DNA from: Nitrosopumilus sp. | GTDB lineage: Archaea > Thermoproteota > Nitrososphaeria > Nitrososphaerales > Nitrosopumilaceae | Reading direction: 5' to 3' | Assembly: GCA_965249555.1 (NCBI GenBank) | Contig: OZ252243.1 | Span: 768,001 to 832,000 of the forward strand | Length of the DNA stretch: 64,000 bases | In this document: positions 11,496-20,775 of the stretch, in pieces | Position numbering within the stretch: the first letter of the stretch is position 1 | Layout: each line of letters begins with the position of its first letter | Translations under genes and position numbers: made by a program | The notes under the pieces: model-generated | The model's input: only the letters and a program-made list of their open reading frames with translations | The model's database searches: none | What the model was told of the DNA's origin: nothing

Positions 11496-12161
11496 ATGGA
11501 TATTTTCAAATTTGATGTGTATAGGGGTCCTAATCTTGGAGTATACATCAGTGTTAATGATAATACGATTCTAGTTCCAATGGGTTATGCCAAATCCAAA
11601 GCAGAAAAACTTGAAGAATATCTTGATGCAGAGGTTTTATTCACATCAGTTGCAAACACCAGACTAATTGGAATATTATCTGTAATGAACAACAAAGGAA
11701 TTCTACTTCCAAAGACTGCATATCAGGATGAATACGATTTTCTGAAAAATGAGACTGACTTGGAAGTTGGTGTACTTGATTCAAAATTTACCGCATTAGG
11801 AAATGTAATTTGTGCAAATGACAAGGGAGCAGTTGTATCTCCTTGGTTGTCAGATAAGGATTGCCAGACCATCAAAGATGTGCTAGGAGTTGAGGTGATT
11901 CAGAAAAGAATTGCAGGATTCAACCAAACAGGAGTAGTCCTTGTTGCAAATAATTCTGGTGCTGCTATCCATCCGGAAGCCGATGAGGAAGACATGAAGA
12001 CATTTTCTAATCTGCTAGGCGTAAGAATAGAGCAGAGCTCAATTAATAATGGAACACCATATGTCTCATCTGGAATTCTTGCAAATAACCATGCTCTAGT
12101 TGTTGGGTCATTAACTACGGGTCCCGAGATTATGATGTTAACTAGGGCTTTTCTAAATTAA
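11496..12161 (+). CDS. eif6: Translation initiation factor aIF6
   Basis: NLGVY, GNVICANDKGA, ANNSGAAIHP and TTGPEI motifs. Confidence 0.95.
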   Translation: MDIFKFDVYRGPNLGVYISVNDNTILVPMGYAKSKAEKLEEYLDAEVLFTSVANTRLIGILSVMNNKGILLPKTAYQDEYDFLKNETDLEVGVLDSKFTALGNVICANDKGAVVSPWLSDKDCQTIKDVLGVEVIQKRIAGFNQTGVVLVANNSGAAIHPEADEEDMKTFSNLLGVRIEQSSINNGTPYVSSGILANNHALVVGSLTTGPEIMMLTRAFLN

Positions 12162-13422
12162 GAATAGAGTTTGGGTCTTCGGTAAGTTTCTCCAAAGATA
12201 TTATTTCTTCTGCTCCGTCATTCATGTCACGCAGTACGACATTTCCTTGCTCCAGTTCCTTTGGTCCAACAATAATTGAGAATCTTGCATTTGTTGCAAT
12301 CTCCATCTGTCTTTTTAGATTACGTCCTGCCAAATCAATGTCAGTTGGGATGTTTGCCAATCTTAGTAGTGATGCGATGGATAGTGCAACTTTTTGCATC
12401 TCATCATTAATGTACAATACTGCAACGCGCTTTTGTGTTACTTTGGGAACTATTCCTTGCTCATCCATTGTTAGTATGATTCTCTCCACACCACCTGCAA
12501 CTCCAGTTGCACCAATGTCTTTCCTGCCAAATGCCTTGGTTAGAGAGTCGTATCTACCACCACCAGCAAGTGCTCCCAGTGTAGAGTTTTTATCAAATAC
12601 CTCAAAGACAACACCAGAATAGTAATCCAATCCCCGAACTATGCCAAAATTAATTCTAACATTTGAGACTCCGCGATTCTCTAAGGAGTCAATTAACAAT
12701 TTTAGTTCATCCCAAGACTCTAGCTGTGATACATCAAATGCCTTTTCTACTTCAGAAATGGTTCCCTTGATTTGTGAGAACTCTAGAATCTTTTCTAGCT
12801 TGTCTGTGTCATATCTGTCTTTGAACTCATTTAGGATATCGTCTTTTGATTTTTTTGCAATCTTATCTACTGCTCTTAGGATATCTGCCACCAGTGTTGT
12901 ATCTATAGAGTCAAAGATTTTGTTAATATAGGATTCTACAAGATTTCTATGGTTAATGTCAATTGTAATATTTTTGAGCAACAGTGAATCAAATAGTCTG
13001 GATGTCAACTCTATAACTTCGGCTTCAGATTCCAGGGTTGGTTTTCCGTAAATTTCAATATCCCACTGATGAAAGTAGCGATATCGTCCCTTTTGAGGCT
13101 CGTCGTATCGAAATACTCCTCCAAAACTAGAGATTTTTGCTGGGAGTTTCATTGATTTTTGAGCAGCGGCGTATCTGGTTAATCCAATTGTAAAGTCAAA
13201 TCGTAGTGCTACATCTCTGTCTCCTTTATCTTTGAAATAGTAAATTTCATCTTTGATTGCAGGACCTGACTTGGTTTCAAGTACTGATAGTAACTCGATT
13301 GGGGATGGATCCATAAATGAAAACCCGTACAGATTTGATAGTTGCTTGAAATGATACCTGATATGCTCAATGTTTGCAGTCTCTGCTCCTTCAAAGTCCT
13401 TCATTCCGCGTGGTAATTCCAA
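12142..13422 (-). CDS. hisS: Histidine--tRNA ligase
   Basis: PRGMKDF, LRFDFT, FRYDEPQKGRYRYFHQ, RGLDYY, GGGRYD. Confidence 0.97.
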   Translation of the reverse strand: MELPRGMKDFEGAETANIEHIRYHFKQLSNLYGFSFMDPSPIELLSVLETKSGPAIKDEIYYFKDKGDRDVALRFDFTIGLTRYAAAQKSMKLPAKISSFGGVFRYDEPQKGRYRYFHQWDIEIYGKPTLESEAEVIELTSRLFDSLLLKNITIDINHRNLVESYINKIFDSIDTTLVADILRAVDKIAKKSKDDILNEFKDRYDTDKLEKILEFSQIKGTISEVEKAFDVSQLESWDELKLLIDSLENRGVSNVRINFGIVRGLDYYSGVVFEVFDKNSTLGALAGGGRYDSLTKAFGRKDIGATGVAGGVERIILTMDEQGIVPKVTQKRVAVLYINDEMQKVALSIASLLRLANIPTDIDLAGRNLKRQMEIATNARFSIIVGPKELEQGNVVLRDMNDGAEEIISLEKLTEDPNSILNLEKP

Positions 13423-13623
13423 GATGATTCTGTGTGTAATGATTAGGATTTAGATTTTACTAAATTTGGTGAAAGTATTTACTAGACTTTTAGAGAACAT
13501 ATGATTTGATCATTAAATTAAAATGCTTTGAAGAAATAATTGTATCATCTAAAAAATTATCAGATAAATTTTGACACTGATGAATTATGCGTAAACACAT
13601 TGTGATTATACGGCATAATCGTC

Positions 13624-13888
13624 ATGGTGGATGTTCTAATTGTTGGGATTGTTAAAGAACGAGGATGTATCATTGCATTTGTGATCAATGGTGGGTTGTA
13701 CGATAAAGACGATGTGGTATCAACCATATTGTTAGACAAGATGATGGATGGGAACATGTTTACATATTTGTTGAAGGTTATACAAAAGCCAGAGTTTTGT
13801 AAAAACATCATACACTGGAACCAGTTTTCTATGTACTCCTCCTGATGGGATACTGAAAAACAACCTCGGTGAACTTCCTCAGCATTGA
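13624..13888 (+). pseudogene. DUF3892-like protein, two frameshifts
   Basis: Joined frames read MVDVLIVGIVKE...VEGYTKARV...TGTSFLCTPPDGILKNNLGELPQH*, resembling the DUF3892 C-terminal L-x-T-x-P-D...NNL-x-x-LP pattern. Confidence 0.6.
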
Positions 13889-13913
13889 TTTTTGAGTCTG
13901 CTTCAAACCAAAA

Positions 13914-14390
13914 CTAGACTATTTTTGGATCCAAAAATACATTCAAAAGATAAACTAACAAAATAATAGAAATCCATGCAAATTTCCCCATTTCTGCAGC
14001 ACCAAACCCAAGTGCTTCTAATTCAAGTGGTACTTTCATTTTATCATATGTTGAAAATTTCCTGATGGCTTCTAAGGCATGTTCGTGAGGGTATAGATTA
14101 TGAGCATAAAGATTTCGAATTTCATTTAAAATTTTTAAATCTCGATTGTAGGTTTCATCGATTAACCCTAACTCAAACAAACGCTGTTGTTTTGTTGCAA
14201 ATCCATCCTTACTATAATCTTCAGAAATCTGATGTAAAATCCCGTTGAAGAACTCTTCGGCCTATAGATGTGTGCGCATAATCTGACCAATCAAATCAGA
14301 AGTCTCAGTAATTGAATTCATTACAATCAACATTGCATCTTTTGGTTCCATGGATTTCCATGATTTGATTATTTCATCTGGAGTTGTCAT
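13914..14390 (-). pseudogene. HEPN/MtlR-like helical protein with one in-frame TAG (14262-14264)
   Basis: ATG at 14390 is in frame with the 13914 stop; reads ...MRTHL*AEEF...LKILNEIRNLYAH (RxxxxH). Confidence 0.6.
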
Positions 14391-14454
14391 GGTTTTTCTC
14401 ATTTTGTAGGATCATGATGTCTCTAAAGCCATATGATCAAGTTTTTCAATAATT

Positions 14455-14976
14455 TCATTTAGAATTTTGTTTGGTAATATCTTTATCTAAAAAATGTTTT
14501 ATAAGTATGAAAATTTGACATGTGAACAAAATCATCGCAATAACAAGAAAGATTACTAAGCTTAGATGTATATTTTCAAAGTGCTCATCTGCGGATTTAC
14601 CTTCTATTTCATTTGAACGTACAATCAAATCAATATTGTCTTCTTTCTCTTCACTGTCTACATAAAAAAATGCTCTGTCTTTTGGATACATGTGTGATAT
14701 GTGGTATATTTTTTGATCATGATTTGTGTAATTTGTGATTATTTCTCCAGACAGTTTTGTATGATTGATATAATTGATTGTCAATTTCTGATTTGGATCA
14801 AATTCTATAGTTACATCGGTTGCTTGTTTGAAACCAACATTTTGGATTGTTAGATATGTTGCATCCCCATAGTATATCAGCGTAGGTGTAAGGGGTGAAG
14901 CAAAAATCCACAAAATGACACTGATTAATCCACTTATTCCAAGTAGCGTGATATTCTTTTTTGTACTTTTTTTCAC
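14455..14976 (-). CDS. Hypothetical membrane protein (N- and C-terminal TM helices around a beta-rich domain)
   Basis: 173-aa ORF with two hydrophobic segments. Confidence 0.65.
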   Translation of the reverse strand: MKKSTKKNITLLGISGLISVILWIFASPLTPTLIYYGDATYLTIQNVGFKQATDVTIEFDPNQKLTINYINHTKLSGEIITNYTNHDQKIYHISHMYPKDRAFFYVDSEEKEDNIDLIVRSNEIEGKSADEHFENIHLSLVIFLVIAMILFTCQIFILIKHFLDKDITKQNSK

Positions 14977-15255
14977 ATGTTTAGAAAATATTTGAACTAA
15001 ATAAGTTTTCTAATTTACCTGTGAAGAGTAAAAATGTGGATCAGTCAAAATTTGAACATTGAAAACTCTCAAGATGCAGTTAAAACATGCTGATGAACGA
15101 TTAGCAATACTTGAATCGGAATTATCCAATTTCAAAACTACTCGAATACAAAAAATACACATCCTAAATTGTTAGATGTTAACACTAAATTTTATATCTA
15201 AATTCATACAAGTATGAATGAACTAGTTATAAATTCGTCATAATATAATAATGAC

Positions 15256-16731
15256 ATGCCTACATCAAATGCATGTCAGTACAATCATGACTATTACTCT
15301 TCAATTTTAAAAAAAATTATTCCTTTCAAATGTGTACATAATCCCCTTTCCTCTGGTTACTGTATCTTTCATGATGAAGATTATTTAATTGGGCATGAAG
15401 ATGAAATTCGTGAATTTGTTGAAAATTATTTAGAGGAATGCCAACAACGTGGATTGCCATTTGAATGTGTAGGATATCATTTACCTGAACTAGATTTTGA
15501 AGATACTCGATTTTTAATTTCTGTTAATTTTACAGATGCTAAATTTTATGGGGAAGTTATATTCGATAATTCAGAATTTACTCAATATTCTGATTTTTCA
15601 CATGCTACTTTTTTTGAAACTGCCGGATTCACTAATACTCTATTTTTAGATGATCTGAATTTTAATTATGTGCCACAGGCTAAAAATATTTTATTTAGAT
15701 ATAGTAAATTTAAGAAAAAAACTGATTTTAGATATTCGCATATTAAAAATGGCTCATTCTTTCATTGTGAATTTGAACATGTGGATTTTTCTGAATGTCA
15801 CTTTTACACTTCTATTAGTTTCGCTTCTAATTATTTTCATAATAGGACTGATTTTACTGGTTGTATTTTTGATGATAAAGTATATTTCTCGTCATCACAA
15901 TTTTCTGAAGAATTGATATTTGACAAGCCTGAGTTACACGATAAATGTATGCTACAAAATGTTGTTTTTCTAAAACCTAAATCTGTCTATGTTGCAGGGG
16001 ATTTATCATGGGTTTCTTTTTTAAATACTGATTTATCCAGAATACATTTTGGAAATTATTTAATTTGGAATAACACTGCAAAAGATTCTAAATTCCAAAA
16101 TCAACAATTTATTATTTATGATGAAAAATTATTGGATGACGATGTTGAAAGTGGATTAGAATTAAATGCTGTTTTAGATGTATATCGAAATTTACGTGAA
16201 AATTTTGATTATTATTTGAGATATGATGATGCTGGTGATTTCTTTATTCGTGAAATGGAATTAAAACGTAAGTATAAACAATCTGCCAATAAAATTGGAA
16301 AACAAACATCAAAAAAAAATTGGGTAATTAGTAGATTTTCCATTATGGGGTGGTATGGTTTAATTTCTCAGTATGGTCATTCATTATCTAGATCCTTTTC
16401 TTCTTCATTGATTGTTTTTTCATTTTTTGTAGTTTTCTTTGGAACTAGTAATTTTTGCAATGTGGATTACTCTACTTGGCACTTAGATGTTTCTTCATCT
16501 TGGTACTGGGATTTTTCTTCATCTTGGTACTTAGAACCAATTGTGAACTGTAAGTTACTACCATTGGACTTTGCTTTACAGAGAGCATTTTCTGGATTTT
16601 TTCCCTTCTATTCCTCAAATCCTGAAGATCTGGAGTTGTCTGATATTCTTTTACGTGTGATATTATTGCCAATTTCGGGTTCTTTCTTTATTTCGCTTAA
16701 AAGAAAACTTGAACGTAAATTCAGACATTGA
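15256..16731 (+). CDS. Pentapeptide-repeat protein with N-terminal Cys/His motif and C-terminal TM helices
   Basis: C...C...YCIFH N-terminus; ~10-aa-periodic F-x-x-[AST]-x-F repeats; YRNLREN...AGDFFIREM helix; YGHS followed by TM segments. Confidence 0.8.
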   Translation: MPTSNACQYNHDYYSSILKKIIPFKCVHNPLSSGYCIFHDEDYLIGHEDEIREFVENYLEECQQRGLPFECVGYHLPELDFEDTRFLISVNFTDAKFYGEVIFDNSEFTQYSDFSHATFFETAGFTNTLFLDDLNFNYVPQAKNILFRYSKFKKKTDFRYSHIKNGSFFHCEFEHVDFSECHFYTSISFASNYFHNRTDFTGCIFDDKVYFSSSQFSEELIFDKPELHDKCMLQNVVFLKPKSVYVAGDLSWVSFLNTDLSRIHFGNYLIWNNTAKDSKFQNQQFIIYDEKLLDDDVESGLELNAVLDVYRNLRENFDYYLRYDDAGDFFIREMELKRKYKQSANKIGKQTSKKNWVISRFSIMGWYGLISQYGHSLSRSFSSSLIVFSFFVVFFGTSNFCNVDYSTWHLDVSSSWYWDFSSSWYLEPIVNCKLLPLDFALQRAFSGFFPFYSSNPEDLELSDILLRVILLPISGSFFISLKRKLERKFRH

Positions 16732-16766
16732 GGTAGATTTATCCAATAGATTGTATTAAAAAAATA

Positions 16767-17960
16767 ATGGTTAAAACCAACGATCCCATATTTTTGGAGG
16801 CAAAAAAAGAATTTGGAAAGAAAACCTCTGTTGCATTTATTGGAAGAACATATGATGGTAAAACAGTTGCGTCCACTTTACTGTATGATGCAATTTTTAA
16901 TCATTTTTATCCAAAAAATAAAGATAAAGTAAATGTTCGACCTATATTTGGTACAGACAAATTAGTGACAGATCATAAACGCATGTTTCTCAAAGGACGT
17001 TTTCCAGCGCCAACTCTTCCTGGTTCAAAATTACAAATTGTTGTTAGAATTGCAAGCAAATCTAGTTTTGGGCCGAAAATTGATTTAATGTTAAAAGATG
17101 CTTCTGGAGAAGATTTGATGAAAATTTTACGAAAAGGTGACAAGACTGATGAAGAACTACTAACACTTGTGTTGAATGAAGGTCTTTCTGACTCTGAATC
17201 CTATGGCCCTTTAAGCTATTTGCCTTTTGTCGAATTATATGTACTTTTAATTGATTGTGAAACTCATAAGGATTGGATTAGTGAACAATACAATTATGCA
17301 AAAATCATTAATTCTATTAACCAATTAAAAACAATAACTAAAGAAGTAGACAAGCAAGGACGTTTTAAATCTGCAATTGCCATAGTTTTCACTAAAGTAG
17401 ATAAATTGCCCCCTGATATTCTAAAACCCCAAGGTAAGAAAATATCTGCTAAAGAAATCGTGGCAAATAAGTTACTTGCTTTAGAATCTACTTTATCTGA
17501 TAGTCATGATGGCAAAGTCGGTTATTTTATGATGAGTGTTAACAATGTACATGAAGCATCTCCTGAAGAAGCAAGTGAAATTGCCCTTGAAGAATCCGAA
17601 GAATTATCGTCACAAATAGAAGATTCAGAATTAGAAGAAAGAGAAATAGCAAAACGCATGATTGAACAAAAAATTGATGAACGCGTTCAAAAAGTGATTA
17701 GTAAAATTCGACAACAACGAATCGCCGAAGGACATCCTGTAGATGTTGCAGAAAAACATGCACAGACTGCAGGTAATGTTGAATTAGAAATAGCAAAAGA
17801 AGAGTTAACTATTGATGAAGAATTCATTGCAAAACAAAACATATTGGATAAACTCAGAAATCCTGATAAGAAACACTATACGATCTTACTCCCATTAAAA
17901 TACAGTTCAAGAGAATACATCAGGTTTATTTCATGGATGCATGAAGTATTGACAGAATAA
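16767..17960 (+). CDS. Atypical TRAFAC-class GTPase (Double-GTPase/DO-GTPase-like) with acidic coiled-coil insert
   Basis: G1 GRTYDGKT, G2 FPAPT, G3 DASGE, G4 TKVD. Confidence 0.8.
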   Translation: MVKTNDPIFLEAKKEFGKKTSVAFIGRTYDGKTVASTLLYDAIFNHFYPKNKDKVNVRPIFGTDKLVTDHKRMFLKGRFPAPTLPGSKLQIVVRIASKSSFGPKIDLMLKDASGEDLMKILRKGDKTDEELLTLVLNEGLSDSESYGPLSYLPFVELYVLLIDCETHKDWISEQYNYAKIINSINQLKTITKEVDKQGRFKSAIAIVFTKVDKLPPDILKPQGKKISAKEIVANKLLALESTLSDSHDGKVGYFMMSVNNVHEASPEEASEIALEESEELSSQIEDSELEEREIAKRMIEQKIDERVQKVISKIRQQRIAEGHPVDVAEKHAQTAGNVELEIAKEELTIDEEFIAKQNILDKLRNPDKKHYTILLPLKYSSREYIRFISWMHEVLTE

Positions 17961-17963
17961 TTC

Positions 17964-19703
17964 ATGTTACACAGTCAACATTTTATCTATACTACTGCAT
18001 CATTAAAAGACAAATCGGGATATCAGATAGTTGCTCAAAGCAAGAATATCTCCCCACAATTATTATCTAAACTCAGTGGAAATTTCTTACCTGTGGGTGT
18101 GGATCCAACTAATATTAAAAAATGTTACATGTTTTTTGTATTTGAAAATGATGTTGTATTTAGCACAATTAAAAATATTGGTGTCGGATTTGATGGCAGA
18201 AATAACACGTTATACAACCATTCGATTATTTTATCCAAAGATGATTTTTTAAAAATACATAATAATCCTAGAGTCATGTCTGAATATTTCATTGATGATT
18301 ATTCTATGCATGGTAACTTAGACCCTCTAATAATTAATGAACAAGATATTAAAAATTATGATTTATCCTTTTTTTCTAATTGGCCAAAAACAATATTGGA
18401 GAATGTCTTTGACGGGATTTTTAATAACAAAAAGATTGCATTATCGGGAATATCTGATGATCAGTTCCTTCTTAATTTAATTTCAATACTACCTAAATCT
18501 TTACGTTTAAAGTCATTTTCCACTGGAATTTCAGATTCTAATAAACAAACCATGTTTGATATTTTTCAAATAAACCCTGATGTAATTTTCAACAAAAATC
18601 ATAATTATGAAATAATCCATGTTTCAAAGCTACGTCCAATCTATACCCATGATGCAGATACCGTTTTTGAACGAAGCATTAAATTTTTTACAGATTTAAT
18701 AAAAAATCAACATGAAAAATCTTTAGAATCTGTGAACATGTTATTTGATGAAATTATTGATGTATCTGATGTTAACAAATTAAAATTGACAACCTATTTT
18801 GAACGTGTAAAGACGATCTCTGACGACTCCACAAAACAACGATTGTCTATAGAAATTTTTACCATGTTGGATAATTTTGAAATTAACACTATTGGTAAAA
18901 TACTTCCAACGATAAAAAATTTTGTGTCTGTTGATGTATATGACAAATATTCACTCCAATTAGAAATTCTACACCTCGTTAAATCTACCATGAATACTGA
19001 TATTGATTTTGCATATGTGTCATCATTATTTCATCGCCTTTCTCATGATAATTCTGAAAATAGATTGTTGTTATTGGATGAGCTTATTAAAACTAGATTT
19101 GATGAAATGAAATCTGTAGGTGATAAACTGTTGTTAGATTCTAAGTATGTATTGTATTATGGGGATGATATTGTTAATAAAATTCTTACTACTCCTTCAC
19201 TACATTCCTGTATTTTTAAATTGTTTGTACCAAGAAACAATTTTCCAAAAATTTACCAACAACCATTTTTTGAATTAATAATTAAAAACTCTCTTACCAT
19301 TGATGCATCTATTACTTTAAAACTTCTTCAAACATCAATTTTTGATTTCAATAACCAATTTGAAAGTAAACATTACAAGGAGATTCTTGGCAATGTATTT
19401 GATCATTTGATTTTATCCAATATGAAATACATGAAAGAAATTCTCAATTTATCTCTCTTCTTATATGAAAAAATATTTACAATTACTAATCACGTTCCGT
19501 CATCTGATACTACTAAATCTAATCTTGAACAATTTATCCAAATTATTAATATTCTTCATAACTATTTTGAAACTCACAAAAAATCTATTCCTAAAAATAT
19601 TCGTTTACATGAAAAAATATCTGCACATTTTGAATCTTTATCAAATTATTTAGATCAGCATCATATTGAACCAGAACCTAGACCTTGGTGGCATTGGTTT
19701 TAG
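17964..19703 (+). CDS. GTPase-associated protein (GAP1-N2/GAP1-M-like, DENN-like N-terminus plus helical C-terminus)
   Basis: N-terminal QHFIYTT..GYQIVAQS..G.DGRNNTLYNHSIIL; middle KKIAL..LISILPKSLRLKSFST; starts 3 nt after the GTPase stop. Confidence 0.65.
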   Translation: MLHSQHFIYTTASLKDKSGYQIVAQSKNISPQLLSKLSGNFLPVGVDPTNIKKCYMFFVFENDVVFSTIKNIGVGFDGRNNTLYNHSIILSKDDFLKIHNNPRVMSEYFIDDYSMHGNLDPLIINEQDIKNYDLSFFSNWPKTILENVFDGIFNNKKIALSGISDDQFLLNLISILPKSLRLKSFSTGISDSNKQTMFDIFQINPDVIFNKNHNYEIIHVSKLRPIYTHDADTVFERSIKFFTDLIKNQHEKSLESVNMLFDEIIDVSDVNKLKLTTYFERVKTISDDSTKQRLSIEIFTMLDNFEINTIGKILPTIKNFVSVDVYDKYSLQLEILHLVKSTMNTDIDFAYVSSLFHRLSHDNSENRLLLLDELIKTRFDEMKSVGDKLLLDSKYVLYYGDDIVNKILTTPSLHSCIFKLFVPRNNFPKIYQQPFFELIIKNSLTIDASITLKLLQTSIFDFNNQFESKHYKEILGNVFDHLILSNMKYMKEILNLSLFLYEKIFTITNHVPSSDTTKSNLEQFIQIINILHNYFETHKKSIPKNIRLHEKISAHFESLSNYLDQHHIEPEPRPWWHWF

Positions 19704-19902
19704 GATCCAAACTCATTAGATCAATTTCACTTAAAGATTCAAAATATTATGATTGTACAAATCTGTTGAGATTTGGTATTTTCTAAACCTAAATCTTTTT
19801 TGAACATATTTTACAGCAAATATTTGTATGTCCTAAACTATCTAATTCCCTCATAGGGATTCATCATTCTAGTTCAATACCCTAAAAATAAAAAAAGAAA
19901 GA

Positions 19903-20775
19903 TTAGTTATCAGGAACTACAATTCCTCTATCTATCATCTTTAGTGCAGTATCTGCTTTTAGACACATTGCCACACCGTTTGATGCTTTCATTACAAAGC
20001 TGAATCCTTCACGACATTCAACGTCTGCAGCATCAAAGCCGGCAGTCATTTGAGTACGTGGGAAAATCCATGCTAGTTGCATGTCTTTGGCCTTTTCAAT
20101 TAAATCTGCTCCAAGTTCTTGTTTTTCCTCGTCAGCCATATCAGATGCTCTTTCTCGAAGATCAGCTTTGAAGGCTCTCATCTCAGCGATTCTATCATGA
20201 ATCTCTGATTTGCGCTCCTCAGTTGGATTGACTGTTGACATGTATTCTCTGTATTTCATTTTGAGTTCAGACTTTTTTGCATCGGTCCAATCACCATGCT
20301 TTTCTTTGAATTTCATCTTGATTTCATCCATTCTCTCGTCCGTAATGTCATGCTTTTCCATGATCATTGCTTTGAGTCGTGGAGAAATATCAGACATTTT
20401 CATTTTGTCATGTAGTTTGTCTTTTGCGACATCAGACATTCTGTCTTTTGCCATATCTGACATTCCATCAAAGTCATGTTTTTTGTCCATCATTCTGTCT
20501 TTCATGTCGCCTTTGTGATCTCGCTTGTAGTCTTCTCTTTCTTCTGGTGTCATTTCACACCATTTAGAGATTCTATCAAGTTTTGCTACATCAATGATTT
20601 CTAATACACGATCAGATGCTGCCATATCACATAGTCTATCATAATTCATGTGAGGTCGTTTGTCAGACATTTTGTCTTTCATATGATCTTTGATGAAATC
20701 CGTTCTTGCATTGTCATCTAGTGAACAGTATTTGTTCATCTTTTCGACATGATCTGCTGCTTTGTCATGTTCAGG
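19903..20775 (-). pseudogene. 5'-truncated Met/His/Lys/Asp-rich helical repeat protein with C-terminal C-x-EG...C domain
   Basis: Frame stays open to ~20775 with no proper start or signal peptide; repeated YC/LC/WC-x-M-x-x-x-x-R units; CREGF...VAMCLK tail. Confidence 0.6.

Follow-up and report, generated by a model that had tools for sequence, protein, structure and literature searches.

A probable DO-GTPase/GAP1 operon with a pentapeptide-repeat membrane protein in a Nitrosopumilus variable island, and a DENN-like predicted fold for its GAP1

Background

Conflict systems built on DO-GTPases and GAP1 (GTPase-associated protein 1) were predicted from comparative genomics by Kaur, Burroughs, Iyer and Aravind (eLife 2020; PMC7159879). 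According to the part of that paper available to us, the DO-GTPase family is marked by a conserved Glu in the Walker B motif (DxxGE), GAP1 is encoded downstream of the GTPase, and the systems whose GAP1 is of the N2 type (GAP1-N2) have a component with FNIII repeats; 38% of the systems have two GTPase genes, and 60% of the GTPases bear zinc ribbons. The same part of the text counts GAP1-N2 in 904 organisms and speaks of 'a few archaea' as hosts, citing Methanosarcina and Cuniculiplasma.

Here we analyse a three-gene operon that very probably belongs to this class. It lies at positions 15256-19703 of a 64,000-nucleotide stretch of Nitrosopumilus sp. DNA (assembly GCA_965249555.1, contig OZ252243.1, positions 768,001 to 832,000 of the forward strand), which we call the window and to which all positions given without a prefix refer. 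An earlier note on this DNA, written from the sequence alone, had proposed a GTPase-centred operon with a GAP1/DENN-like third protein. On balance we favour the reading of the operon as an accessory conflict-type switch made of a DO-GTPase and a GAP1, with a pentapeptide-repeat membrane protein (PRP-TM) as its variable third gene.

A DO-GTPase/GAP1 operon

The operon consists of three co-oriented open reading frames (ORFs) on the + strand, as the earlier note had described them, which encode proteins of 491, 397 and 579 aa and are separated by gaps of 35 nt and 3 nt. The region is AT-rich as claimed, with a GC content of 29.2% against a window mean of 34.7% (standard deviation 2.5), the lowest among 298 sliding windows of 4448 nt. 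The genome encodes an archaeal AmoA (E 1.5e-117) and its named relatives are Nitrosopumilus, so the ammonia oxidation ascribed to the host can be stated as a genomic potential.

The second gene (16767..17960) encodes a TRAFAC GTPase that matches the Pfam families PF19993 (DO-GTPase2) at E 3.8e-5 and PF19975 (DO-GTPase1) at E 2e-3. At E<=0.01, PF19993 is matched by 19 of its 20 relatives (best 2e-11) and PF19975 by 13 of the 20 (best 1.2e-11). The G1-G4 motifs are complete, and their key residues are invariant in 20/20 aligned homologues: G26, G31, K32 and T33 in G1 or Walker A (GRTYDGKT, residues 26-33, 16842..16865), T83 in the candidate G2 (PAPTLP, residues 80-85, 17004..17021), D111, S113, G114 and E115 in G3 or Walker B (DASGE, residues 111-115, 17097..17111), and T209, K210 and D212 in G4 (TKVD, residues 209-212, 17391..17402). 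Judged from these matches, the gene 2 product is a divergent DO-GTPase, as the DO-GTPase-like label of the earlier note had it. The long acidic stretch that had been pointed out before the last helix (residues 261-372, 17547..17882) has 29 D/E against 16 K/R, and we regard it as an insert because the GTPases of a short subtype skip profile positions ~267-360. The C-terminal segment that follows, LPLKYSSREYIRFISW (residues 375-390, 17889..17936), is kept in the short forms, with P376, K378, Y379, S380, E383, Y384, F387, I388 and W390 near-invariant. Sequence searches of PDB with the GTPase gave nothing informative.

The operon has one GTPase gene, and a second paralogous GTPase is not present in it. 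The earlier note had called it a single-GTPase archaeal variant. The archaeal part of this description stands; the single GTPase is not unusual, since only the 38% of systems mentioned above carry two (PMC7159879, as far as the part available to us goes). What is unusual here is the archaeal lineage, the pentapeptide membrane partner, and the lack of both an FNIII component and zinc ribbons on the GTPase, whose N-terminal 60 residues have no Cys and hence no zinc ribbon.

The third gene (17964..19703) encodes the GAP1. The window protein matches PF20013 (GAP1-N2) at E 1.4e-3, and 12 of the 13 gene 3 relatives match the same family (E<=0.1, best 1.2e-7). A GAP1 profile search of 1.84 billion representatives returned only 161 proteins at E<=1e-3, and the conserved core of the family was found at profile positions 1-270. 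We scanned ten of the distant matches against Pfam: five were above the GAP1-N2 cut-off, three above the GAP1-M cut-off, one had a sub-threshold N2 match and four had no Pfam match. Using hhalign, our 13-sequence alignment was matched at 99.8% (E 2.3e-28, 303 columns) to eight distant GAP1 proteins, of which the five scanned with Pfam are above the cut-off. This alignment runs from 1-310 against 1-318 and takes in both the N2 and the M domain. In addition, family profile positions 1-199 or 1-257 align to three proteins (P0258, P0270, P0275) across their above-cut-off GAP1-M regions. These alignments indicate that the gene 3 product is a GAP1 of the N2 type with the M domain included, in line with the GAP1-N2/GAP1-M identity that the earlier note had given it. 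The C-terminal helical half did not align with bacterial GAP1 in this comparison, where the hhalign match ends at column 310; no search by name for a GAP1-C model was made.

The motifs of the third protein listed in the earlier note are all present, namely GYQIVA at residues 19-24, GFDGRNNTLYNHSI at 75-88 and LPKSLRLKSFST at 176-187. In 80 GAP1 sequences we found G19, Y20, Q21, S26, P43, N71, G73, R79, H86, F95, P177, R181 and F185 to be near-invariant, and several of these residues align with invariant residues of bacterial GAP1.

Linkage, inheritance and distribution

We searched for related loci in species-representative genomes (five loci, all Nitrosopumilus/Thaumarchaeota), in 251 genomes of the family and in metagenome contigs (ten loci). 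The genomic set comprises 15 loci with a full-length GTPase and four with broken or fragmentary copies. The earlier note had made co-occurrence of the three genes in other genomes a test of its reading, and they do co-occur in genomes and metagenomes. Of the 22 loci that could be assessed, 21 have GAP1 directly downstream of the full-length GTPase and on its strand. In genomes this holds for 13 of 14 loci (11 intact, one split and one a fragment), with L036 having no GAP1 and L014 not assessable at a contig edge; in metagenomes it holds for all 8/8. PRP-TM adjoins the GTPase-GAP1 pair in 14 of 23 loci (8/15 genomic, 6/8 assessable metagenomic). Among the eight genomic PRP-TM neighbours, six lie upstream in the same orientation, one is in divergent orientation and one is reduced to a remnant of 76 aa.

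The trees of the GTPase and of GAP1 have their main clades in common, with PRP-TM-linked loci on both sides of the midpoint root. Over nine loci, pairwise distances are correlated among the three proteins (r = 0.78, 0.76 and 0.63), which is no proof of contact because co-inheritance suffices to explain it. We also tried the rule that a long GTPase pairs with a long GAP1 and dropped it: the rule is clean in genomes and weakened by two metagenomic loci, with 17 concordant and 3 discordant cases among loci that are not independent.

The GTPase is encoded in 11 of the 251 family genomes (11/174 of the high-quality ones), covering 4 of 27 genera and 4 of 26 congeners sampled. In a sample of 401 genomes from the whole phylum, 7 have GAP1. 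Five of the matches are strong and all fall within this family, and the two weak ones (E ~1e-4), in another genome of the genus (G219) and in a genome of another family (G375), cover the helical part only. Stop codons or truncated copies were found in three other genomes (G207, G177, G195) and in the window's own genome (G000).

The same genome carries a second, paralogous system on the minus strand at ~1.82 Mb (G000:C1:1822126-1826300; loci L001 and L042). Its three proteins are a multi-winged-helix protein of 715 aa, a GTPase of 292 aa in which the acidic insert is missing, and a short GAP1 of 395 aa. Two further remnants were observed in this genome, a 138-aa N-terminal GTPase fragment (G000:C1:151839-152192) and a stretch of the GAP1 C-terminal part that is interrupted by four stop codons (G000:C1:1780564-1781070).

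The third component varies. In the short subtype the gene upstream of the GTPase encodes a multi-winged-helix-turn-helix protein of ~700 aa in three loci (L039, L040, L042) and a RelA/SpoT-like protein (E 3.8e-20) in a fourth (L043). The upstream proteins of all four (L039:4838-6946, L040:7866-9941, L042:8149-10296, L043:8122-9108) have a common C-terminal domain of ~110 aa (blastp E 4e-7 to 1e-9) that matches no Pfam family. We consider it a candidate adaptor that may couple variable modules to the constant GTPase-GAP1 pair; an adaptor of this kind was proposed earlier for the GAAD domain in the available part of PMC7159879. The neighbours of related loci include ThsB-TIR, 8xMP and HNH genes. 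On one short contig, ThsB-type TIR and 8xMP genes lie between two GTPase-GAP1 systems (L014:1377-2374), a setting that, from the gene content, resembles a defence island.

The constant GTPase-GAP1 pair is co-inherited, PRP-TM is frequently linked to it, and its distribution is accessory. The system turns over fast and often decays to pseudogenes. We call the genes accessory and of fast turnover because they are rare, sit as cargo in a hotspot (described below), leave decayed copies, exchange their third gene and occur as two systems plus remnants in one genome.

These observations bear on another explanation, in which the operon is a switch for physiological membrane signalling instead of defence. 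PRP-TM, for instance as a channel or receptor, would be controlled by the GTPase and its longin/DENN-like regulator on a cellular or environmental cue, in parallel to polarity control by MglA-MglB or to nutrient signalling of the Rag/folliculin type in eukaryotes and Asgard archaea. Several points agree with it: the best fold matches of GAP1 (see below) are regulators of trafficking and signalling GTPases, Pfam, PADLOC and NCBIfam revealed no classic effector domain (nuclease, protease, NADase) in any protein of the operon, all three are intact with 34-37% mean identity over the nine loci, and an operon of Asgard archaea that combines Roadblock, Rab-like GTPase and DENN genes is read as a signalling module in the available part of bioRxiv 10.1101/2020.10.19.343400. 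A physiological switch would not be expected, however, to be carried by so few genomes of the family and so few congeners, to be strain-specific cargo in a hotspot that relatives fill with unrelated genes, to decay so frequently, to exchange its third gene for unrelated proteins including a RelA/SpoT-like enzyme, or to be present twice in one genome beside remnants. We therefore judge this explanation improbable.

The predicted fold of GAP1

The earlier note had suggested that the N-terminal and middle regions of GAP1 may be uDENN/cDENN-like, and the predicted structure points the same way. We built an AlphaFold2 model from the 13-sequence alignment (mean pLDDT 84.1, pTM 0.74). In this model residues 1-106 run beta-beta-alpha-beta-beta-beta-alpha-alpha, the order of a longin domain (predicted elements E2-13, E18-26, H31-37, E53-59, E63-74, E80-91 and H92-97), strands and helices alternate over residues 117-230, and the remainder is helical. 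The N2 domain, longin-like in the model, corresponds to 17964..18293, with GYQ at 18018-18026 and R79 of the GFDGR loop at 18198-18200. The M domain, alpha/beta and central-DENN-like in the model, where it packs against the longin-like domain as the central domain does in solved DENN structures, corresponds to 18294..18713, with LPKSLRLKSFST at 18489-18524 and its P177 invariant. The all-helical C-terminal half follows at 18714..19700, and ~267-455 are absent from the short GAP1 forms.

Compared with 48,161 chains, the model has DENND1A at rank 1 and DENND10 at rank 3. Both matches span GAP1 residues 1-271 or 1-275, that is, both lobes, with 239-246 residues aligned, and among the best 50 of the 48,161 chains only these two DENN proteins are confined to the N-terminal 275 residues. 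The C-terminal half gave generic helical matches only. The available part of PMC3521125 describes the DENN module as a longin domain followed by a three-layer alpha/beta sandwich and, last, by a dDENN that is all alpha, and the order of elements in the GAP1 model fits this description. We consider it likely, on the strength of the model, that the N2 and M domains together have a DENN-like fold.

The likeness could instead be generic or convergent, a longin/roadblock-like sheet standing beside a small Rossmann-like domain with no homology involved, and GAP1 would then be a scaffold without GEF (guanine nucleotide exchange factor) or GAP (GTPase-activating protein) activity. This would leave unexplained why a DENN protein ranks first in the comparison and why DENN proteins alone among the best 50 are restricted to the N-terminal part. 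It would also have to account for alignments that cover both lobes in the order longin, alpha/beta sandwich, alpha-hairpins, and for a partner gene that encodes a GTPase, as for DENN modules. We regard the generic explanation as rather unlikely. The same grade is given to a far-reaching form of the opposite view, in which GAP1 would be truly homologous to the tripartite DENN module over its N and M domains and its first helical hairpins. With Arg79 as finger, it would be the prokaryotic counterpart of longin GAPs of the folliculin/SMCR8 type and in this operon would gate a HalA-like pentapeptide ion channel. If that speculation were true, DENN-GTPase pairs would be no invention of eukaryotes or Asgard archaea and would be widespread in bacterial and thaumarchaeal conflict systems.

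Returning to the DENN-like fold itself, R79 is placed by the model in the loop between strands 4 and 5 of the longin-like domain. Folliculin, SMCR8 and NPRL2 catalyse by means of arginine fingers in their longin domains, according to the available part of PMC12290439. Because R79 is near-invariant and these precedents exist, a GAP role for GAP1 appears, by analogy, no less plausible than a GEF role. Our literature search found no paper combining DENN with DO-GTPase, and the phrases 'bacterial DENN', 'prokaryotic DENN' and 'archaeal DENN' were used in none of the texts searched; longin, Roadblock and DENN are all unmentioned in the available part of PMC7159879. DENN proteins are reported from Asgard archaea in the available part of bioRxiv 10.1101/2020.10.19.343400.

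PDB sequence searches with the N and M domains gave nothing informative. The 80-sequence GAP1 profile matches two PDB entries of about 1500 aa (DP622 and DP221) over the helical region at E ~4e-6, a match that is probably compositional.

The pentapeptide-repeat membrane protein

The first gene (15256..16731) encodes PRP-TM, in agreement with the pentapeptide/TM (transmembrane) protein of the earlier note: it matches Pentapeptide_3 (PF13576) in four stretches at E 2.1e-14, with 53.9 bits against a cut-off of 27, and has two hydrophobic C-terminal segments. We found 220 homologues at E<=1e-3, and near-full-length copies in ~10 of the 251 family genomes. The protein starts with a Cys/His motif of C7, C26, C36 and H39 (15274..15375). 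C26, C36 and H39 are invariant in 23 sequences and C7 nearly so, and we take the motif as a candidate zinc knuckle that may bind zinc. The pentapeptide-repeat region, in which the tandem repeats are of the A(D/N)LXX type, covers residues ~76-270 (15481..16065) and has an invariant Phe ladder, with Phe at every fifth position; its profile matches in PDB are to MCBG-like, Qnr and HalA repeats.

A segment YRNLREN...REMELKRKYK (16183..16278) stands ahead of the membrane domain, and Y310, R311, L313 and R338 in it are invariant in 82 sequences, as are Y373 and G374 further on. The membrane domain (16366..16701), defined by hydropathy, reads SQYGHSLSR, TM1 (residues ~376-403, 16381-16464), a Trp-rich loop, FFPFY and TM2 (residues ~461-482, 16636-16701), and the basic tail LKRKLERKFRH follows at 16696-16728. 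The first hydrophobic helix begins with a YG-x-S-x-x-R motif. The Trp-rich loop between the helices is repeated, being encoded by a 24-nt tandem duplication (83% identical) at 16475-16522, and this insertion is not in the closest relatives.

A profile search of PDB with the PRP-TM family found the HalA chain 9nyi_A at E 0.005. A second, non-significant stretch aligns YG-x-S-x-x-R and its helix with WGSSISR and a helix of HalA. HalA is a gated membrane ion channel that depolarises infected cells, according to the available part of a review (PMC13434031). We rejected membership of PRP-TM in the HalA family, as NCBIfam NF051894 gave 8.9 bits (E 0.77) against an equivalog cut-off of 250; NCBIfam has nothing else for the operon proteins. 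HalA is kept purely as a working analogy for how PRP-TM might act.

The variable island

The operon is located in a low-GC island (13423..19902, no strand assigned) with 29.6% GC against 34.7% for the window and with core genes at both borders. The HisRS gene (12142-13422, minus strand, by Pfam) forms the left border, and an eIF-6 gene lies on the same side. The right border is the gene of an acidic 278-aa protein (19903-20739, minus strand), and beyond it there are a VTT-domain gene and an archease gene. The interval between HisRS and the acidic gene is 6.5 kb here and 1.4-11 kb in 11 congeners. We fetched six of these congener intervals, including that of the closest relative (HisRS 92% identical), and the operon was found in 0/6, with one marginal match of 12.7 bits. 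The interval is a variable hotspot, and the operon is strain-specific cargo in it. The cargo of the congeners (loci L048-L053) differs each time and includes aldo/keto-reductase-like, HD-domain and small membrane proteins.

The location of the operon raises the possibility that it serves a mobile element, perhaps a degraded one, with PRP-TM as toxin or exclusion factor and the GTPase-GAP1 pair as its regulator in addiction or superinfection exclusion. The low GC of the island agrees with this, as do the transposase-like repeats and the defence or toxin-antitoxin-like genes around related loci, and in genomes that lack the GTPase, stand-alone PRP-TM relatives lie directly beside genes of the Phage_integrase family (L055:98-2914, L056:4055-7073). 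Yet no integrase, tRNA or att-like direct repeat was found at the island borders, where there are only short imperfect repeat pairs; pattern-based scans of 2.9 million viral contigs found no relatives of the GTPase or PRP-TM; and the three operon proteins have no match in PHROGs. We think this explanation the least probable of those considered.

A TATA-box-like element, TTATAAAT, can be read from the sequence at 15227..15234 (+), 22 nt upstream of the first ATG. It could be an archaeal promoter from which the operon is transcribed with a short leader or none. Rfam had 0 matches on 13300-20100. A sigma-70 promoter/terminator scan gave 42 sites against 41.3 expected, from a bacterial model that is not applicable to archaea.

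Two other ORFs were observed in the island. One of 88 aa (13914-14180, minus strand) has an R-N-x-x-x-H motif and weak matches to Cas13b HEPN regions (NCBIfam E 0.0027; PADLOC E 0.009), and may be a remnant of a HEPN domain. The other, of 173 aa (14455-14976, minus strand), lies between the HEPN-like ORF and the operon; it has hydrophobic segments at both ends, no Pfam family and a single weak PHROG match to tail fibre (E 1e-3). The 278-aa flank protein is strongly charged and rich in Asp, Lys and Met, with a conserved C-terminal domain containing CLKADTALKMIDRG, and C-terminal domains related to it occur in many copies per congener genome.

A possible mechanism

Our analysis suggests a working model for the DO-GTPase/GAP1 switch. 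GAP1 probably binds and regulates the GTPase: it would dock the GTPase on a longin/DENN-like platform and set its nucleotide state, perhaps with Arg79 as an arginine finger, as in the longin GAPs folliculin, SMCR8 and NPRL2, or alternatively by nucleotide exchange, as DENND1 does. The switch would then gate PRP-TM as its output, or read PRP-TM as a sensor. The beta-helix of PRP-TM might offer a surface for bait or regulation, and the output might come from its conserved membrane domain, which would permeabilise or depolarise the membrane, in a layout comparable to the solved one of HalA. The infected cell would finally arrest its growth or die. We lean slightly towards a role of the operon against viruses or mobile elements, and the assignment of PRP-TM as the effector is tentative and somewhat doubtful.

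Several results weigh against this reading and set its strength. In our literature search we found no experimental test of any DO-GTPase/GAP1 system, and because of this the term 'conflict system' is itself a prediction. The window GTPase has 23.9 bits against the PF19993 gathering cut-off of 27, ~3 bits short, and the window GAP1 has 19.1 bits against the PF20013 cut-off of 24, ~5 bits short; the two assignments hold despite these scores because the relatives match the Pfam models. No match to Pfam GAP1-M (PF20014) was found in the genome at E<=10. Pfam identified no FNIII domain in six ORFs of the island and flank, and because of this we file the operon as a variant of the GAP1-N2 type. PADLOC, one of the checks proposed in the earlier note, had no meaningful match for five island proteins, with weak ones only at E>=0.009.

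The membrane protein adds further points of this kind. PRP-TM has no recognisable toxic domain and is missing from 9 of the 23 loci. It is also present in four genomes without a GTPase match (G201, G214, G121 and, as a broken copy, G122), and since it occurs alone in such genomes we regard it as a separable module. The HalA model is matched by 19 of 82 PRP-TM relatives (best E 4.8e-9) and HetL by 29 of the 82; because HetL matches more of them, the signal between PRP-TM and HalA is mostly cross-matching of repeats.

As for the DENN likeness, the matches have a root-mean-square deviation of 4.4-4.8 A and an identity of 6-7%, and they come from a single AlphaFold model (13 sequences) and a single aligner. 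The search for DENN families that the earlier note had called for came back empty: Pfam DENN (PF02141) and uDENN (PF03456) have no match in the genome at E<=10, and PDB profile searches with GAP1 found no DENN protein. For this reason we apply the term DENN-like to the fold of GAP1 and do not count the protein among the DENN family.

Significance

We are highly confident that the operon is an archaeal form of the already predicted DO-GTPase/GAP1 class. With just three genes, a single GTPase and neither zinc ribbons nor FNIII proteins, it is compact and lends itself well to reconstitution. The ammonia-oxidising archaea from which it comes are abundant, and little is known of their antiviral repertoire. 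PRP-TM represents a widespread, unstudied architecture and possibly a parallel to the Hailong channel HalA. The DENN link may be important and is, in our opinion, the part most deserving attention, even as a matter of modelled structure. If the DENN-like fold of GAP1 is true, an uncharacterised family would gain a testable biochemical role (GEF or arginine-finger GAP), and a large non-Asgard prokaryotic family would bear on the origin of the eukaryotic DENN/longin regulators of small GTPases.

Comparison with known systems

HalA of Hailong (PDB 9nyi) is similar to PRP-TM in having a cytoplasmic pentapeptide-type repeat region followed by a membrane domain, and both have [YW]G-x-S-x-x-R before a hydrophobic helix, in a stretch whose alignment is non-significant. 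The two differ in that the PRP-TM operon has no HalB nucleotidyltransferase; the likeness comes mostly from the repeats, and a channel activity of PRP-TM is hypothetical.

DENN modules (DENND1A-Rab35, PDB 6ekk; DENND10 in Commander, PDB 8p0v) resemble the model of GAP1 residues 1-275 in the longin-like sheet, the alpha/beta domain and the helices, and like GAP1 they are paired genetically with a P-loop GTPase. In contrast to them, GAP1 has no detectable sequence similarity to DENN proteins, its partner is a DO-GTPase and not a Rab, and it belongs to an accessory prokaryotic operon. The complexes folliculin-FNIP, C9orf72-SMCR8 and GATOR1, as covered by the available part of PMC12290439, are DENN-family or longin GAPs of small GTPases with an arginine finger in the longin domain. 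GAP1 has the near-invariant R79 in a longin-like loop of the model, where its position is only likened to that of those fingers, and the conserved Gly-containing GYQ between the first two strands. The eukaryotic complexes are heterodimers of longin domains, whereas a single GAP1 gene is present here.

MglA-MglB, a prokaryotic pair of a Ras-like GTPase and a Roadblock/longin-like GAP, and the Asgard operon with Roadblock, Rab-like GTPase and DENN genes (bioRxiv 10.1101/2020.10.19.343400, available part) likewise couple a small P-loop GTPase with a partner of the longin/Roadblock or DENN type in one operon. They differ from our system in the GTPase family, in the large three-part GAP1 and in the distribution, which is accessory here and not lineage-wide.

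The GAP1-N2 systems remain the closest. Compared with what the available part of PMC7159879 says of their hosts, the host here is a thaumarchaeon. The GTPase here has no zinc ribbon, and a Cys/His motif is found on PRP-TM instead. Neither an FNIII component nor a theme of tubulin, HSP70 or kinases is present, and the GTPase is lengthened by an acidic insert of ~110 aa. For the C-terminal half of GAP1 no alignment with its bacterial counterpart was obtained, and PRP-TM is the most frequent third gene. In common with them, our system has a TRAFAC GTPase with DxxGE, a GAP1 encoded immediately downstream with homologous N2 and M domains, a constant pair joined by a variable extra component, a membrane-proximal setting, and a patchy, mobile distribution in which several paralogous systems per genome are possible.

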